From positions 1 to 41,079 of IMG/VR virus record IMGVR_UViG_2778261579_000010: a stretch of DNA of 41,079 nt; one strand, given 5' to 3'. Origin of the DNA: a virus. Taxonomy: Duplodnaviria; Heunggongvirae; Uroviricota; Caudoviricetes. Both the position numbers and the translations under genes were made by a program. Below are positions 31,286-36,953 of this stretch, piece by piece. The notes beneath the pieces were generated by a model. The model was not told where the DNA came from and did no database searches. It saw nothing but the letters and a program-made list of their open reading frames with translations. How positions within the stretch are numbered: position 1 is the first letter of the stretch; every line of letters starts with the position of its first letter.

Positions 31286-32638
<1,353 letters not shown>

Positions 32639-32987: not shown

Positions 32988-33320
32988 ATGGATGCACAAA
33001 CACGCCGCCGCGAACGTCGCGCAGAGAAACAGGCTCAATGGAAAGCAGCAAATCCCCTGTTGGTTGGGGTAAGCGCAAAGCCAGTTAACCGCCCTATTCT
33101 CTCGCTGAATCGCAAACCGAAATCACGAGTAGAAAGCGCACTGAATCCGATAGACCTTACGGTGCTGGCTGAATACCACGAACAGATTGAAAGCAACCTG
33201 CAACGTATTGAGCGCAAGAATCAGCGCACATGGTACAGCAAGCCACGCAGTGAAATGGGTGTGACATGCTCAGGCCGCCAGAAGCAACGCGGAAAATCAA
33301 TTCCAGCTTATTACGATTGA
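32988..33320 (+). CDS. N: Antiterminator N (lambda type)
   Basis: 110 aa from MDAQTRRRERRAEKQAQWKAANPLLVGVSAKPVNRPILSLNRKPKSRVESALNPIDLTVLAEYH, matching lambda N including the Arg-rich motif; CAGGAG RBS. Confidence 0.9.
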   Translation: MDAQTRRRERRAEKQAQWKAANPLLVGVSAKPVNRPILSLNRKPKSRVESALNPIDLTVLAEYHEQIESNLQRIERKNQRTWYSKPRSEMGVTCSGRQKQRGKSIPAYYD

Positions 33321-33325
33321 GGTTA

Positions 33326-33595
33326 ATGATGAAGTTCAAATTGAACGATGAAGTTAAATGGTCAAGCTCATCAAACGGTGTAACGAAGGTAAAAATCGGG
33401 TTTATTGTCGAGGTGATTCCTCCTGGTGTCAACGTAAAAAAATTCGAACTAGGCCGTCTGCTAGATGCACCTGGCCTTCCGAGGAAAGAAGAGAGCTATA
33501 TAGTTTGTGTAGGTCCAAGACCCGGATCTCGTGCCAAGCCAAAATATTACTGGCCGCGAGTTAATAACCTGCGTCACTTACACGATGACAAATAG
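33326..33595 (+). CDS. Hypothetical early-left protein
   Basis: 89 aa from MMKFKLNDEVKWSSSSNG; RBS GAGG; immediately downstream of N. Confidence 0.55.
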   Translation: MMKFKLNDEVKWSSSSNGVTKVKIGFIVEVIPPGVNVKKFELGRLLDAPGLPRKEESYIVCVGPRPGSRAKPKYYWPRVNNLRHLHDDK

Positions 33596-33650
33596 AAGTG
33601 AATATCATTGTTTTACTTTTTCGCAGCAAACCACTTATTTGAGGTGAGAT

Positions 33651-33824
33651 ATGGAAGCATTAGTAGTAGAGCGAAGCGAGGATGGCTACTGGACGCACCC
33701 AGAATACGCCAACCTGTTTGGGGATAGAGAGGTAATTTCAGCTGATGAGTTCAGACTTTCTGCAAGCAGCATGGCATTGAATCATCAATTGTTGAAATGG
33801 AAAACGACAACAATCAAACGGTAA
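33651..33824 (+). CDS. Small acidic early-left ORF (57 aa)
   Basis: Not in the supplied track; MEALVVERSEDGYWTHPEYANLFGDREVISADEFRLSASSMALNHQLLKWKTTTIKR; strong RBS GAGGTGAG. Confidence 0.45.
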   Translation: MEALVVERSEDGYWTHPEYANLFGDREVISADEFRLSASSMALNHQLLKWKTTTIKR

Positions 33825-33973
33825 TTGACGCGTATTTTGAAGATGGGAATCAAAACATCAGTGGATGGGAGCCAAGCATGCCAGATGGAGAAGGATGGTT
33901 TGTCGGTTCGATTCACGATACAGAAGACGGTCCGATCTGCGTTTGGTTCAGGAATGTAGATAAGGCCGAATAG
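33797..33973 (+). CDS. Small acidic early-left ORF (58 aa), overlapping the previous ORF in another frame
   Basis: Not in the supplied track; MENDNNQTVIDAYFEDGNQNISGWEPSMPDGEGWFVGSIHDTEDGPICVWFRNVDKAE; weak RBS; ends inside a terminator hairpin. Confidence 0.4.
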   Translation: MENDNNQTVIDAYFEDGNQNISGWEPSMPDGEGWFVGSIHDTEDGPICVWFRNVDKAE

Positions 33974-33988
33974 TCGGCCTTTATTTTT
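33962..33988 (+). terminator. Rho-independent terminator in the early-left operon
   Basis: Hairpin AAGGCCGA-ATAG-TCGGCCTT followed by TATTTTT. Confidence 0.6.
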
Positions 33989-34107
33989 GGCATAAACAAC
34001 AGAATAAACACAGCACTGTGTATTCATTCCAACGAGTGAATACACGGAGCAATGTCGCTCGTAACTAAACAGGAGCCGACTTGTTCTGATTATTGGAAAT
34101 CTTCTTT

Positions 34108-34134
34108 GCCCTCCGATGTGAGGGCGATTTTTTA
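34108..34134 (+). terminator. Second rho-independent terminator
   Basis: Hairpin GCCCTC-CGATGT-GAGGGC followed by GATTTTTTA. Confidence 0.6.
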
Positions 34135-34153
34135 TCTATGAGGATATGAATAG

Positions 34154-34522
34154 ATGTCAAACATCAAAAAATACATCATTGATTACGACTGGAAAGCATC
34201 AATAGAAATTGAAATCGACCATGACGTAATGACAGAGGAAAAACTTCACCAGATTAATAATTTCTGGTCAGACTCTGAATACCGACTCAATAAACACGGC
34301 TCTGTATTAAATGCTGTATTAATCATGCTGGCGCAACATGCTCTGCTTGTAGCAATTTCAAGCGACTTAAATGCATATGGTGTTGTGTGTGAGTTCGACT
34401 GGAATGATGGAAATGGTCAGGAAGGATGGCCTCCAATGGATGGTAGCGAAGGAATAAGAATTACCGATATCGATACATCAGGAATATTTGATTCAGATGA
34501 TATGACTATCAAGGCCGCCTGA
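34154..34522 (+). CDS. Highly acidic hypothetical protein (early-left region)
   Basis: 122 aa, rich in Asp/Glu (e.g. DWNDGNGQEGWPPMDGSEGIRITDIDTSGIFDSDDMT); RBS GAGGA. Confidence 0.55.
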   Translation: MSNIKKYIIDYDWKASIEIEIDHDVMTEEKLHQINNFWSDSEYRLNKHGSVLNAVLIMLAQHALLVAISSDLNAYGVVCEFDWNDGNGQEGWPPMDGSEGIRITDIDTSGIFDSDDMTIKAA

Positions 34523-34597
34523 GTGCGGCTTTACCGCATACCAATAACGCTTCACTCGAGGCGTTTTCGTTATGCAATCAAATATAAGGAGTTACCC

Positions 34598-34732
34598 ATG
34601 ATGCACTTTCAGCTCGCGGGTAGCGGCGTCATGTCCGCTTTCTACCCGCACGAATCTGAATTATCACGCCGAGTTAAACAATTAATCAGAGCAGCAAAGA
34701 AACAACTGGAGGCGTTATGCGCAATGAAATAG
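34598..34732 (+). CDS. CIII-like small protein (putative FtsH-inhibitor family)
   Basis: 44 aa from MMHFQLAGSGVMSAFYPHESELSRRVKQLIRAAKKQL; AAGGAG RBS; central ESELxRRxK amphipathic segment resembles the lambda CIII core (ESLLERITRKLR); weak similarity. Confidence 0.4.
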   Translation: MMHFQLAGSGVMSAFYPHESELSRRVKQLIRAAKKQLEALCAMK

Positions 34733-34869
34733 CCATCAATCACCAGATGCTTCGTGCTGCACAGAACAAAGCAGTAATAGCCAGATTTATTGGTGATTCA
34801 AAAATGTGGCTTGAAGCAAATAAAGCGATGAAATCAGCTATCAACCTTCCGTGGTATCGCAGGAAATGA
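34717..34869 (+). CDS. Small hypothetical protein (50 aa)
   Basis: Not in the supplied track; MRNEIAINHQMLRAAQNKAVIARFIGDSKMWLEANKAMKSAINLPWYRRK; TGGAGG RBS. Confidence 0.4.
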   Translation: MRNEIAINHQMLRAAQNKAVIARFIGDSKMWLEANKAMKSAINLPWYRRK

Positions 34870-34973
34870 GTTTTACAGATAACTGGTCAGACGAAGAATT
34901 CATTCGTCAGATGAACAAAATGCTCAATCAGCACAAAGAACAGGAGAAAGATGATGATTCTGACTCTGAATGA
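34866..34973 (+). CDS. Small acidic hypothetical protein (35 aa)
   Basis: Not in the supplied track; MSFTDNWSDEEFIRQMNKMLNQHKEQEKDDDSDSE; start overlaps the previous stop. Confidence 0.35.
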   Translation: MSFTDNWSDEEFIRQMNKMLNQHKEQEKDDDSDSE

Positions 34974-35262
34974 TAAGCGTGAAATATCGCAAATAATCGC
35001 AAGTTTTACTGATGAAGATTACGAGCGAATCAACAGTGAAGTTGATCGCCTCTGCAAACGTTGCGACCCAATAAGCGAAATGCTTCGCTCATATAAACCA
35101 GATGAACACACTAAGGACGCTATCGACTGGCTGGAAGATGATGACTGTAACTATCAGGAAAAAGCCGCTGAATGGTTCTGGGATGCAATAACCGAAAGAG
35201 TTAAGGCTGAATATGCCTTCGCAATATTTAAACTCAGACACATTTTTGGAGAAGCTGCATGA
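34951..35262 (+). CDS. Acidic hypothetical protein directly upstream of recT
   Basis: 103 aa; AGGAGAAAG RBS; ends overlapping the recT start. Confidence 0.55.
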   Translation: MMILTLNDKREISQIIASFTDEDYERINSEVDRLCKRCDPISEMLRSYKPDEHTKDAIDWLEDDDCNYQEKAAEWFWDAITERVKAEYAFAIFKLRHIFGEAA

Positions 35263-36161
35263 GCAATATCGTTGAATTCGTTAAACAGCAAGAGCAGTTA
35301 TTCTGCGGAGCATTGACTGAACAGACGGTGACATGGGCTAAGGAAAGCCAGTTTGCAATTCAGTATTTCCAGAAAAACGATTACCTGGCTAAAACAGCAC
35401 TGGCAAATCCAACCAGCGCACAGAACGCCATCATCAATGTTGCGGCGATCGGCATCACCTTAAACCCGGCCAGCAAACTGGCTTATCTGGTTCCTCGCGA
35501 CGGCATGGTGTGCCTTGATATCAGTTACATGGGATTACTTCACCTTGCACAGTCGACAGGATCAATTAAGTGGGGGCAATGCAAACTGGTGTACTCAAAC
35601 GACACCTATGAATCAAACGGCCTTGATTCAGCACCAACCCACAAATACAACGCATTTGGTGAGCGAGGCTCTATTGTTGGTGGTTATTGTACGGTTAAAA
35701 CAGCAGATGGTGACTACCTCACTGAAGAAATGAGTCTGGCAGAAATTAAAGCTGTGGAAGCAACGAGCAAGGCAAAGAATGGACCGTGGAAGACATTCTG
35801 GGAAGAGATGGCGCGTAAAACAATAGTTAAACGCGCCAGCAAATACTGGCCTAAAGCCCAGCGACTGGATAATGCCATTCACCTGCTTAACGAAGATGAA
35901 GGTATGCATCAGGAACCAGTTATGCCGCACAAATCAGAGGAAGATATCCGCGAAGATGAACGGAAACGCCAGCAGGAAATTATGGAAAAAGCACAACTTC
36001 TTTGTGATGAAATGGCTCAGGCAGAAAACATGGATGATTTGAAGCGATATTTTGCAGAAGCATATCGCCTGACATCTGGAATGAAATTGCAGCAGAACGT
36101 ACAAGCCATTTACATAGAATGCAAAGCGAAACTGGAGGTTGCCAGTGAGCAAACTGTATGA
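35259..36161 (+). CDS. recT: RecT-family single-strand annealing recombinase
   Basis: 300 aa; conserved RecT core (NGPWKTFWEEMARKTIVKRASKYWP). Confidence 0.85.
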   Translation: MSNIVEFVKQQEQLFCGALTEQTVTWAKESQFAIQYFQKNDYLAKTALANPTSAQNAIINVAAIGITLNPASKLAYLVPRDGMVCLDISYMGLLHLAQSTGSIKWGQCKLVYSNDTYESNGLDSAPTHKYNAFGERGSIVGGYCTVKTADGDYLTEEMSLAEIKAVEATSKAKNGPWKTFWEEMARKTIVKRASKYWPKAQRLDNAIHLLNEDEGMHQEPVMPHKSEEDIREDERKRQQEIMEKAQLLCDEMAQAENMDDLKRYFAEAYRLTSGMKLQQNVQAIYIECKAKLEVASEQTV

Positions 36162-36627
36162 AATTGCCAATGAATACGCAAAATTGATGGATTCAGATTT
36201 AGAACCAGAGATGATTGCTGACACAATAGAAGGCATGGAAGGAGAATTTACCGATAAAATAGAGCAACTTCTTTCCGTCATTAAAAATGAATCTGGTTAT
36301 GCTGAACGCCTCAAGGAAGAGGCAAAGTCACTGAATGAGCGAGCCGCAGTAATTCAAAATAAGATTGACAGCATCAAATCATATATAGCGTCATCGCTTG
36401 AAATGGTTGGCAAGAAAAATATTCGAGCAGGTATTCACCAGGTAACAATCCGCAAACCGTCAGAAACTGTAGAAATCATCGACTCAAGCGCCCTTCCTCC
36501 TGAATACGTTGAGTTTGAAACGACAATTAAAGCCGACAAACTGGCAATCAAACACCAACTAAAAGCAGGAATAAATATCCCCGGCGCTCAACTCAAAGTT
36601 GGGAAACCTTCACTTCTTATCAAATAA
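36145..36627 (+). CDS. Gp157-like phage protein paired with the recombinase
   Basis: About 160 aa, coiled-coil-rich; GGAGG 6 nt upstream of a GTG start (an in-frame TTG lies at 36139). Confidence 0.5.
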   Translation: MSKLYEIANEYAKLMDSDLEPEMIADTIEGMEGEFTDKIEQLLSVIKNESGYAERLKEEAKSLNERAAVIQNKIDSIKSYIASSLEMVGKKNIRAGIHQVTIRKPSETVEIIDSSALPPEYVEFETTIKADKLAIKHQLKAGINIPGAQLKVGKPSLLIK

Positions 36628-36638
36628 CGGTATCGCCT

Positions 36639-36953
36639 ATGAAAAAGACTCCATGGGAGAAATGGGAAGTCGATTTCTTGCGCGAAGTGGCGGCGACAAT
36701 GCCAGTTGAAGTTATCGCTGAAAAACTGGAAAGGACTGAAAAAGCAGTAATGGCGAAAGCAACAAGGATTGGAGCTGACATTGTTAGCCGACTTCGTGGA
36801 AGACGCTGGACAAGAGCCGAAGTATCACTTTTCGGTAAGTTCTCCGCAGAAGAAATAGCAATTGCAACCTGCCGCTCAATTTATTCAGTAAGAGCTATGC
36901 GATACAAGCTAAAAAAACTCGATGAAGAAAGAGCAGGCATACGAATAAATTAA
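36639..36953 (+). CDS. Hypothetical phage protein
   Basis: 104-aa ORF in the operon. Confidence 0.5.

Follow-up and report, generated by a model that had tools for sequence, protein, structure and literature searches.

The window analysed here, a stretch of viral DNA of 41,079 nucleotides, carries directly upstream of recT a gene for an acidic protein of 102 amino acids (aa), which is probably a strongly diverged relative of lambda Gam and an inhibitor of RecBCD. This protein is interchangeable with a true Gam at identical boundaries beside an orthologous RecT, and its predicted structure has the fold of GamS; the sequence evidence for homology to Gam is weak. The surrounding stretch is an ordinary part of the leftward early (PL) operon of a P22-like or lambdoid E. 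coli prophage, and most of its genes (Ea10, CIII and Kil) are ordinary lambda-like E. coli prophage genes.

Organisation of the gene cluster

Since cI (31605-32237) and a lambda-type N (about 32988-33320) lie on the same strand, the cluster (Table 1) was assigned to the leftward early operon, in agreement with the original prediction. The five open reading frames (ORFs) that it listed are all present on the plus strand, and the two terminators it placed upstream were recovered as terminator-like hairpins with T-runs. The first hairpin overlaps the stop codon of a 58-aa ORF; near-identity to lambda begins at 33970, a position equivalent to that of the lambda ral stop. The segment that contains the second hairpin has 98% identity to the spacer between ral and ea10 in lambda, where the tL2 terminators and the sRNA LPR1 lie; for LPR1/tL2a this location is given in bioRxiv 10.1101/2024.10.31.621285. 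Past these tL2-type terminators the order of genes is Ea10, CIII, Kil, the 35-aa ORF, the 102-aa protein, RecT and Gp157. The last ORF of the cluster, which had been noted as a 103-aa acidic protein abutting recT, overlaps the recT start at 35259 by an ATGA. Acidity had been ascribed to the whole cluster; it is a property of the 122-, 35- and 102-aa proteins, and the 44- and 50-aa proteins are basic.

Table 1 Features of the early-left cluster and its flanks (positions in the window)
Feature	Position	Strand	Description	pI	Net charge
Terminator-like hairpin 1 with T-run	33962-33990 (hairpin 33962-33981)	+	consensus scan		
Terminator-like hairpin 2 with T-run	34106-34137 (hairpin 34106-34127)	+	consensus scan		
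ea10	34154-34522	+	lambda Ea10 (DUF2528), 122 aa	4.28	-14
cIII	34598-34732	+	CIII-family peptide, HK022/HK97 type, 44 aa	9.9	
kil	34717-34869	+	Kil peptide, 50 aa; 16-nt overlap with cIII	11.0	
35-aa acidic ORF	34866-34973	+	ends DDDSDSE; mosaic joint; phrog_17766	4.27	-7
Putative Gam-like gene	34954-35262	+	102 aa, acidic, predicted all-helical; 103 aa if the start is ATG 34951	4.57	-10
Exchangeable cassette	34873-35256	+	body of the 35-aa ORF and putative Gam-like gene; comparison with phage Dewey		
recT	35259-36161	+	300-aa single-strand annealing protein; PF03837 2.6e-33, phrog_148 1.5e-91		
Sipho_Gp157 family gene	36139-36627	+	PF05565 1.1e-37, phrog_253 3.5e-54		

The start codon of the Gp157 gene is uncertain: the listed ORF begins with TTG at 36139, and annotated homologues have 160 aa. 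A downstream 104-aa ORF bears the name Abc1 in the record of phage Gally; this assignment was rejected, its PHROGs match being to a D5-like regulator family.

Ea10, CIII and Kil

None of the five proteins had been recognised from the letters of the DNA. The profile searches proposed at that time assign three of them to known families (Ea10, CIII and Kil, all with Pfam matches) and return nothing informative for the 35- and 102-aa ORFs, which are still without a named family. The 122-aa protein is identical to lambda Ea10 in 121 of 122 positions, matches PF10800 over the full profile (3.1e-47) as well as phrog_646, and is embedded in DNA 98.4% identical to lambda 33483-34087. The CIII peptide covers positions 1-37 of 37 of PF08134 (2e-30), belongs to phrog_550 and has the confirmed position of the short peptide between ea10 and kil. 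Kil matches PF06301 (1.7e-20) and, over its full length, phrog_2055 (1.2e-35), shares 57% identity over 30 aa with lambda Kil, and an identical gene is named kil in RefSeq. All three are thus direct members of the lambda families (Ea10 with 99% identity, CIII and Kil with strong Pfam matches), but CIII differs from lambda's own protein, to which BLASTP gives no alignment, in being of the PF08134 type known from HK022 and HK97.

CIII is an inhibitor of FtsH and Kil an inhibitor of FtsZ and cell division. Both are characterised basic peptides without an anti-defence or DNA-mimic role. The view of the cluster as a set of novel acidic inhibitors therefore lacks support as a whole, as CIII and Kil are characterised, Ea10 is known and the 35-aa ORF lacks signs of selection; the 44- and 50-aa ORFs belong to the unrelated characterised families PF08134 and PF06301. 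What survives of it concerns the 102-aa ORF, for which alone the argument from the gam and anti-RecBCD slot applies and for which a DNA-mimic or inhibitor function is in part supported, in the form of a likeness to Gam.

For Ea10, neither the literature searches nor a search of PDB sequences gave a function or a sequence match, and its function has been described as not understood (bioRxiv 10.1101/2024.10.31.621285). It is quite improbable that Ea10 and/or the 35-aa ORF act as DNA-mimic or anti-restriction proteins, although both are acidic, Ea10 strongly so, and Ea10 adjoins the position of ral in lambda and appears as an abundant early protein in older work (PMC3961180). Neither has homology to characterised inhibitors in Pfam, NCBIfam, PHROGs or PDB sequences. 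Furthermore, Ea10 is dispensable in lambda and no defence-related phenotype was found in the literature searched, and the 35-aa ORF is exchanged for unrelated ORFs at distant loci.

The family of the 102-aa protein

The 102-aa protein has no match in Pfam, NCBIfam or PDB sequences, and its sole database family is phrog_3486, which has no assigned function. With a threshold of E <= 0.001, an exhaustive profile search gave 54 cluster representatives, of which 31 reach E <= 1e-10. They form a small protein family of enterobacterial phages that extends to distant members in Pantoea and Erwinia as well as metagenomes; most are about 100 aa long, with identities to the query down to 24%. All 33 aligned members are acidic with net charges of -4 to -14 (mean -8.7), which compares with a mean of -9.7 in the GamS family; GamS itself has 98 aa. 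The conserved acidic positions are D7, E10, D22, E24, E31, D64, E69 and E86. In the gene, 57 synonymous stand against 45 nonsynonymous changes, which indicates purifying selection. Of 5,426 complete E. coli genomes, 265 contain almost all of the segment with the 35- and 102-aa ORFs, which also occurs in phages such as mEpX1, HK140, Kapi1 and Gally.

Throughout the family, its distant members included, the recombination module opens with this gene. The stop codon adjoins the start of the following gene or overlaps it (ATGA or TGATG), and a Shine-Dalgarno sequence lies inside the last codons. The gene is followed by recT genes of two clades, by an exonuclease VIII-like (RecE-like) gene and recT or, once, by a P22_Y8K6-like gene and recT. 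This slot is the position of gam in lambda, in the PL operon upstream of the recombinase and exonuclease genes. RacC of the Rac prophage, encoded in the same slot before recE, was considered as a relative and rejected (hhalign E 0.74, one aligned column).

The tight and nearly invariant junction with the recombinase or its exonuclease gene would also suit an accessory factor of the annealing protein, that is a loader or cofactor of RecT comparable to Arf for Erf in P22, the likeness to GamS then being a coincidence between small helical bundles. Small cofactor-like ORFs stand just before erf in P22, HK97 and Sf6, and the sequence similarity to Gam is marginal. We consider such a cofactor role unlikely.

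Comparison with lambda Gam

The reference is lambda Gam in its GamS form, represented by PF06064, by PDB entry 2UUZ and, in complex with RecBCD, by 5MBV. Like GamS, the 102-aa protein is about 100 aa long, strongly acidic and, by prediction, all-helical, and its gene likewise opens the recombination module of a PL operon. An hhalign comparison of the family with the Gam-family alignment gave a P value of 0.0034 at a probability of about 10%. The alignment is collinear and centred on T/S-K-x-A-I...DDDxx[FY]QE[KR]xAE, the second part of which stands at an equivalent position in both proteins. None of 200 column-permuted controls (mean 11.2, maximum 19.2) reached the real score of 20.6, and a P value of 0.0014 was obtained against the Gam of phage Dewey. 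Subfamily profiles aligned to Gam in the same register in three of four cases; the Pantoea/Erwinia profile failed to align the motif (P 0.16). Direct searches did not connect the two: PF06064 matches none of 33 family members even at E <= 10, the 102-aa protein has no match to phrog_259, and its family profile did not find Gam among PDB sequences. The Gam HMM likewise found no lambda-type Gam, whether within the window or at the family loci searched.

The predicted structure of the 102-aa protein matches the all-helical GamS fold with its long N-terminal helix and C-terminal helical domain, at 16% identity in the structural alignment. In the model the N-terminal helix is broken at residues 17-19, or shorter than that of Gam, and 28 residues remain unaligned to GamS; the helix with which Gam plugs the channel may thus lack a conserved counterpart. 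A Foldseek search of predicted viral structures (BFVD) retrieved one probable family member only, and not Gam. The 102-aa protein further differs from lambda Gam in lacking the N-terminal extension of the long form (there are 12 in-frame codons upstream of its ATG), and its gene is followed by those for RecT and Gp157 or for a RecE-like protein and RecT instead of Bet and Exo.

The exchange of the two genes was observed in phage Dewey. Its cassette consists of an 80-aa phrog_1273 gene and a 141-aa lambda-type Gam, which take the place of 34873-35256 of the window. The two phages share 89-91% identity in the flanks (34536-34872 and 35257-36700), and the intervening stretch is without a match. 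The Dewey protein is a true Gam (phrog_259) with 63% identity to that of lambda, and the RecT adjoining it is 86% identical to that of the window. Among 160 viral contigs with the same RecT clade, 156 have the 102-aa gene, three have Gam and one has a 102-aa gene broken by an IS element; both genes together were scored in none (0/160).

Proposed mode of action and alternative targets

Acidic DNA mimicry allows the GamS dimer to block the DNA site of RecBCD; the channel for single-stranded DNA is filled by the N-terminal helix of GamS (PMC5218532). By analogy, the 102-aa protein would form a dimer and bind RecBCD, a putative activity in this family. Linear phage DNA, such as injected ends, rolling-circle tails and recombination intermediates, would thereby be protected, and the protected ends would be left to RecT and Gp157.

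Two other known systems bear on this scheme. The anti-RecBCD proteins Abc2 and Abc1 of P22 (PF11043) are likewise small proteins of an early-left recombination module and act on RecBCD, but the abc2 gene lies downstream of erf, Abc2 modifies RecBCD and does not block it, and neither protein has a sequence match to the 102-aa protein in Pfam or PHROGs. The Ku-like end binders of the Mu Gam/Sipho_Gp157 type, a member of which is encoded in the same module and is named 'Mu Gam-like end protection' in PHROGs, offer an alternative block of RecBCD at the DNA ends; they differ from the 102-aa protein in sequence and fold class, and work by binding of DNA ends, not by DNA mimicry (PMC12407980). The module thus already has a second putative end-protection protein, which counts against a Gam-like inhibitor. 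A RecBCD inhibitor is not superfluous where Gp157 is present, however, since a true Gam and Gp157 coexist in Dewey.

It appears rather unlikely that the protein has a Gam-type fold directed at another target, such as a different host nuclease (SbcCD, for instance) or a DNA-end-monitoring defence system, with Gp157 dealing with RecBCD by end protection. Such a change of target would account for the extreme divergence (16% identity), the different N-terminal helix of the model and the constant presence of the Mu-Gam-like Gp157 downstream, and could be driven by defence systems that sense RecBCD antagonists (PMC12407980). Besides the coexistence in Dewey, the net charge and size, which match GamS, and the slot exchange with Gam, which suggests an equivalent function, speak against it. 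Equally doubtful is the wider form of this idea, a retargeted Gam-fold DNA mimic that does more than block RecBCD, or something else, and neutralises another complex which processes or senses DNA ends (SbcCD, or a defence watching the status of RecBCD), or hands DNA ends to RecT and Gp157. If true, it would add a second functional class of Gam-like mimics, carried by about 5% of complete E. coli genomes.

Avoidance of Chi is a feature of phages that have RecBCD inhibitors (PMC3784561). The window has no Chi site (1.2-2.2 expected) and PDP110P1 has none either (3.0 expected), but mEpX1 has six and HK140 four. Most of the latter sites are at matching positions in HK97-type virion genes, and HK97 has them in addition to Abc2, so that Chi avoidance does not discriminate between the readings.

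Implications of a probable Gam-like inhibitor

RecBCD inhibitors allow phage recombination and rolling-circle replication, and Gam is a standard tool of recombineering. Some defence systems, e.g. Gabija, OLD and Kiwa, sense RecBCD inhibitors or depend on them. The retron Ec48 senses inhibition of RecBCD. None of Pfam, NCBIfam, PHROGs and RefSeq gives the 102-aa family a functional name. Surveys in which inhibitors are recognised by the Pfam profiles of Gam and Abc2 (PMC3784561) would score phages of this family as 'recombinase present, inhibitor absent', a class which would in part be an artefact if the family inhibits RecBCD. In that case the natural module of a Gam-like protein, RecT and Gp157 would be a candidate recombineering cassette. 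The finding extends a known principle modestly and does not establish a new one.

The 35-aa ORF

The 35-aa ORF begins in an ATGA overlap with the stop of kil and overlaps the next gene by 23 nt (20 nt if this gene starts at the second ATG, 34954). Nine synonymous and 23 nonsynonymous distinct codon changes were counted in 140 copies, which gives no sign of purifying selection, and at distant loci unrelated small ORFs stand in its place. Searches of Pfam, NCBIfam, PHROGs and PDB sequences gave nothing informative. Its existence as a functional protein is doubtful, and it probably represents no more than a linker that is translated at a mosaic joint. The 16 N-terminal residues (MSFTDNWSDEEFIRQM) are identical to those of HK97 gp42.1 and Sf6 gp30, which occupy the same slot directly after kil; the C-terminal parts are unlike, and in those phages the ORFs precede arf/erf. 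Sf6 gp29 (phrog_1723), at the arf position just before erf, is without a counterpart in the window. An identity with P22 Arf, the cofactor of Erf, was rejected, because the match to phrog_2445 (22 residues) has an E value of only 0.062, the recombinase that follows is RecT and not Erf, and the ORFs of HK97 and Sf6 have no more than the 16 N-terminal residues in common with it. It was also considered whether the 35- and 102-aa ORFs are a frameshifted long Gam. This was discarded, as their overlap, in a different frame, is of the usual start/stop kind and the in-frame codons upstream of the ATG are too few (see above); the sole fusion protein seen (P0025) is the product of a deletion between two GATGATGAT repeats.

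Organisation of the early operon

The window is a P22-like/lambdoid E. coli prophage or phage, whose virion genes are ~95 % identical to those of the phages IME10, Dewey and Louie. The leftward early operon starts with a LexA-type repressor gene and continues with the gene of a lambda-type N protein ahead of five small ORFs upstream of recT, all of which were confirmed by an ORF listing at the places originally predicted. Two hairpins with T-runs are candidates for the two terminators claimed in the same prediction. From cIII to the Gp157 gene the frames form a chain in which each overlaps or abuts its neighbour: cIII and kil share 16 nt, the kil stop is joined to the start of the 35-aa ORF through ATGA, this ORF overlaps the next gene by 23 nt when the latter is read from its first ATG (34951), and the stop of that gene is again joined to the recT start through ATGA.

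Features of the early region (window positions)
Feature	Position	Strand	Remark
LexA-type repressor gene	31605-32237	+	start of leftward early operon
158-aa ORF	32162-32638		rex position
N protein gene	about 32988-33320	+	lambda type
57-aa ORF	33651-33824		in place of lambda ral
58-aa ORF	33797-33973		in place of lambda ral
Spacer	33970-34153		before ea10
Candidate terminator	33962-33981		hairpin + T-run
Candidate terminator	34106-34127		hairpin + T-run
ea10	34154-34522	+	122 aa
Hairpin	34546-34565		ea10-cIII gap
cIII	34598-34732	+	44 aa
kil	34717-34869	+	50 aa
35-aa ORF	34866-34973	+
102-aa gene	34954-35262	+	putative Gam-like protein
recT	35259-36161
Gp157 gene	36139-36627
104-aa ORF	36639-36953		basic

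The 158-aa ORF directly after the repressor gene matches only phrog_2651, a family without assigned function, and contains an internal signal-peptide-like stretch; it may encode a secreted or lipoprotein moron expressed by the prophage. Furthermore, the overlapping 57-aa and 58-aa ORFs both match phrog_1372 (profile positions 58-94 and 107-159 of 194) and look like one gene broken by a frameshift or like the remains of a gene.

Ea10, CIII and Kil

The five ORFs had been proposed to encode strongly acidic, unrecognised DNA-mimic or inhibitor proteins. Three of them are plain members of known families by their sequence matches. The 122-aa protein shares 121 of 122 residues with lambda Ea10 and matches Pfam DUF2528 (3e-47), the 44-aa protein belongs to the CIII family (PF08134, 2e-30), and the 50-aa protein is Kil (PF06301, 1.7e-20; phrog_2055, 1e-35; 57 % identity to lambda Kil across 30 residues). 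The predicted acidity holds for Ea10 (pI 4.28, net charge -14), the 35-aa ORF (pI 4.27) and the family of the 102-aa protein, but not for CIII (pI 9.9) and the very basic Kil (pI 11.0). Lambda Ea10 is dispensable (PMC10695390) and was historically recorded as an early protein made abundantly (PMC3961180); its role is still not fully understood (bioRxiv 10.1101/2024.10.31.621285). The idea of an acidic inhibitor cluster thus loses the known basic peptides CIII and Kil as well as the doubtful 35-aa ORF, and is supported in part, by the 102-aa ORF with its gam slot, charge, predicted fold and exchange with Gam, the lambda inhibitor of the host nuclease RecBCD. The value of the region lies in this one ORF, which would encode a widespread, unannotated Gam-like protein.

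The DNA from the ral stop through ea10 (33970-34574) shares 98.4 % identity with lambda 34087-33483. Ahead of ea10, the spacer has about 98 % identity to its lambda counterpart between ral and ea10, in which the tL2 terminators and LPR1, an sRNA bound by Hfq, are located (bioRxiv 10.1101/2024.10.31.621285); judged from this likeness, LPR1 is probably also made by the window prophage. Within the same segment, the GC-rich hairpin AACGCTTCACTCGAGGCGTT in the ea10-cIII gap has a weak T-tail, yet was flagged by a terminator scan.

The family of the 102-aa protein

The start used by RefSeq and phage annotators is the second ATG (34954), with GGAG 7 nt 5' of it, resulting in 102 aa. The sole library match of the protein is phrog_3486, without assigned function; Pfam, NCBIfam and PDB sequence searches gave no match, and a word-indexed search retrieved close enterobacterial relatives only. 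An exhaustive profile search of 1.8 billion cluster representatives yielded 54 at E <= 0.001; of these, some 35 are full-length (97-110 aa), with identities to the query down to 24 %. Acidity is shared by all 33 members of the alignment (net charge from -4 to -14, mean -8.7). The gene is under purifying selection (57 synonymous vs 45 nonsynonymous changes), and 265 of 5,426 complete E. coli genomes carry a nearly full copy of the segment that contains it and the 35-aa ORF. The family is unnamed across all libraries searched; in Louie, the sister phage of Dewey, the gene is 'hypothetical' in the pipeline that named Dewey's Gam.

Position before the recombinase and exchange with Gam

The distant loci compared come from a Pantoea chromosome and from contigs of NCBI, ENA, Logan and IMG/VR. 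At every one examined the recombination module opens with the family gene, whose stop codon touches or overlaps the start of the gene behind it. The final codons of the family gene also contain a Shine-Dalgarno sequence, which is probably why the C-terminal E-[A/V]-A is conserved. The next gene encodes a window-type RecT followed by Gp157, a RecT of a second clade, an exonuclease VIII-like nuclease ahead of a RecT-like protein or, in one lineage, a P22_Y8K6-like protein ahead of RecT. The slot is equivalent to that of gam in lambda (kil, gam, bet, exo), and in 80 of the 80 best viral contigs with the window's RecT the 35-aa ORF and the 102-aa gene lie upstream of recT.

In phage Dewey the stretch 34873-35256 is replaced, while the flanks (34536-34872 and 35257-36700) are 89-91 % identical. 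The 141-aa protein encoded there (63 % identity to lambda Gam, phrog_259 match) immediately precedes a RecT with 86 % identity to that of the window, and the same Gp157 follows. Among 160 viral contigs whose RecT belongs to this clade, the slot holds the 102-aa gene in 156, Gam in three and a 102-aa gene broken by an IS element in one (IMG/VR contig 2531839667_000017, 512-2465: an IS21-family transposase gene in the 3' end, just before recT). Elsewhere in the window, and in the family loci searched, there is no gene for a lambda-type Gam. Since both proteins alternate in one slot beside the same partners, they likely share a function.

A phrog_1273/Pfam P22_Y8K6 protein recurs near the slot: in Dewey (2086-2328) it precedes Gam, and in a metagenomic phage (L007, 4306-4629) it separates the Gam-like gene from RecT. 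It may be a further accessory of the module. The 104-aa ORF after Gp157 is labelled 'Anti-RecBCD protein 1 (Abc1)' in the record of phage Gally; this label looks unsupported, as its PHROGs matches are a family of D5-like transcriptional regulators and an unnamed family.

Probable relationship to Gam

Position, size and a short motif match had made lambda Gam the candidate. Aligned with hhalign, the family profile is collinear with the Gam-family alignment across 94 columns (P 0.0034, probability about 10 %), the signal coming from T/S-K-x-A-I ... D-D-D-x-x-[F/Y]-Q-E-[K/R]-x-A-E. Of 200 Gam alignments with permuted columns, none attained the real score of 20.6 (mean 11.2, sd 2.2, maximum 19.2). 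The same register was obtained from three of four subfamily profiles, the Pantoea/Erwinia profile not reproducing it. The Pfam Gam model (PF06064) matched none of 33 family members, and the 102-aa protein lies outside the sequence profile defining that family. At the sequence level the evidence is weak, though not absent; that from predicted structure is stronger. A second model, built from 25 diverse members without templates (pLDDT 87.1, pTM 0.73), has helices at 5-16, 20-35, 39-45, 53-63 and 65-101. Gam was not among the hits of a Foldseek search of BFVD. Compared with GamS, the short form of Gam, an N-terminal helix break is predicted and 28 residues are unaligned, so that the channel-plugging part of the Gam mechanism may not be kept. 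A real fold relationship is quite probable, and the protein probably belongs, as a very distant member, to the Gam superfamily.

Chi is avoided by phages with Gam or Abc2 and enriched in those with a recombinase and without an inhibitor (PMC3784561). It is absent from the window (1.2-2.2 expected) and from the lambda-like PDP110P1 (3.0 expected), a carrier of the 102-aa gene. The carriers mEpX1 and HK140 have six and four sites, all on one strand and mostly at matching positions in HK97-type virion genes (e.g. near 2.1 kb, 12.1 kb and 14.1 kb). These sites are also carried, on one strand, by HK97, which encodes Abc2; the Chi count therefore follows the virion module and is uninformative on the inhibitor.

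The Gam-like reading is based on family, position, start/stop junction, charge, predicted fold and interchangeability with Gam. On present evidence the 102-aa protein would work like lambda Gam: by analogy with GamS it would dimerise, linear phage DNA would be shielded and RecT-mediated recombination allowed, and Gp157 would be a distinct factor that binds ends. The dimer, the binding to RecBCD and the phenotype are here drawn from analogy, and inhibition of RecBCD is somewhat favoured. The family would affect the classification of lambdoid phages for RecBCD inhibition, and the idea is readily open to experimental test.

The 35-aa ORF

Residues 1-16 of the 35-aa ORF are identical to the small post-kil ORFs HK97 gp42.1 and Sf6 gp30, which are followed by arf-like and erf genes, whereas the remainder is unlike them; the ORF therefore spans a mosaic joint. 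Across 140 full-length copies the distinct codon changes number 9 synonymous and 23 nonsynonymous, roughly the expectation for neutral drift, and the stop codon is lost in a few copies. In distant relatives of the 102-aa gene the small ORF at this place is unrelated (Kil-like, CIII-like or other). The ORF is doubtful as a protein and may merely link the translation of its neighbours. In addition, the 69-aa E. coli protein P0025, which corresponds to window 34866-35262, joins the 35-aa ORF to the last 40 % of the 102-aa protein, apparently through a deletion between two GATGATGAT (DDD) repeats.
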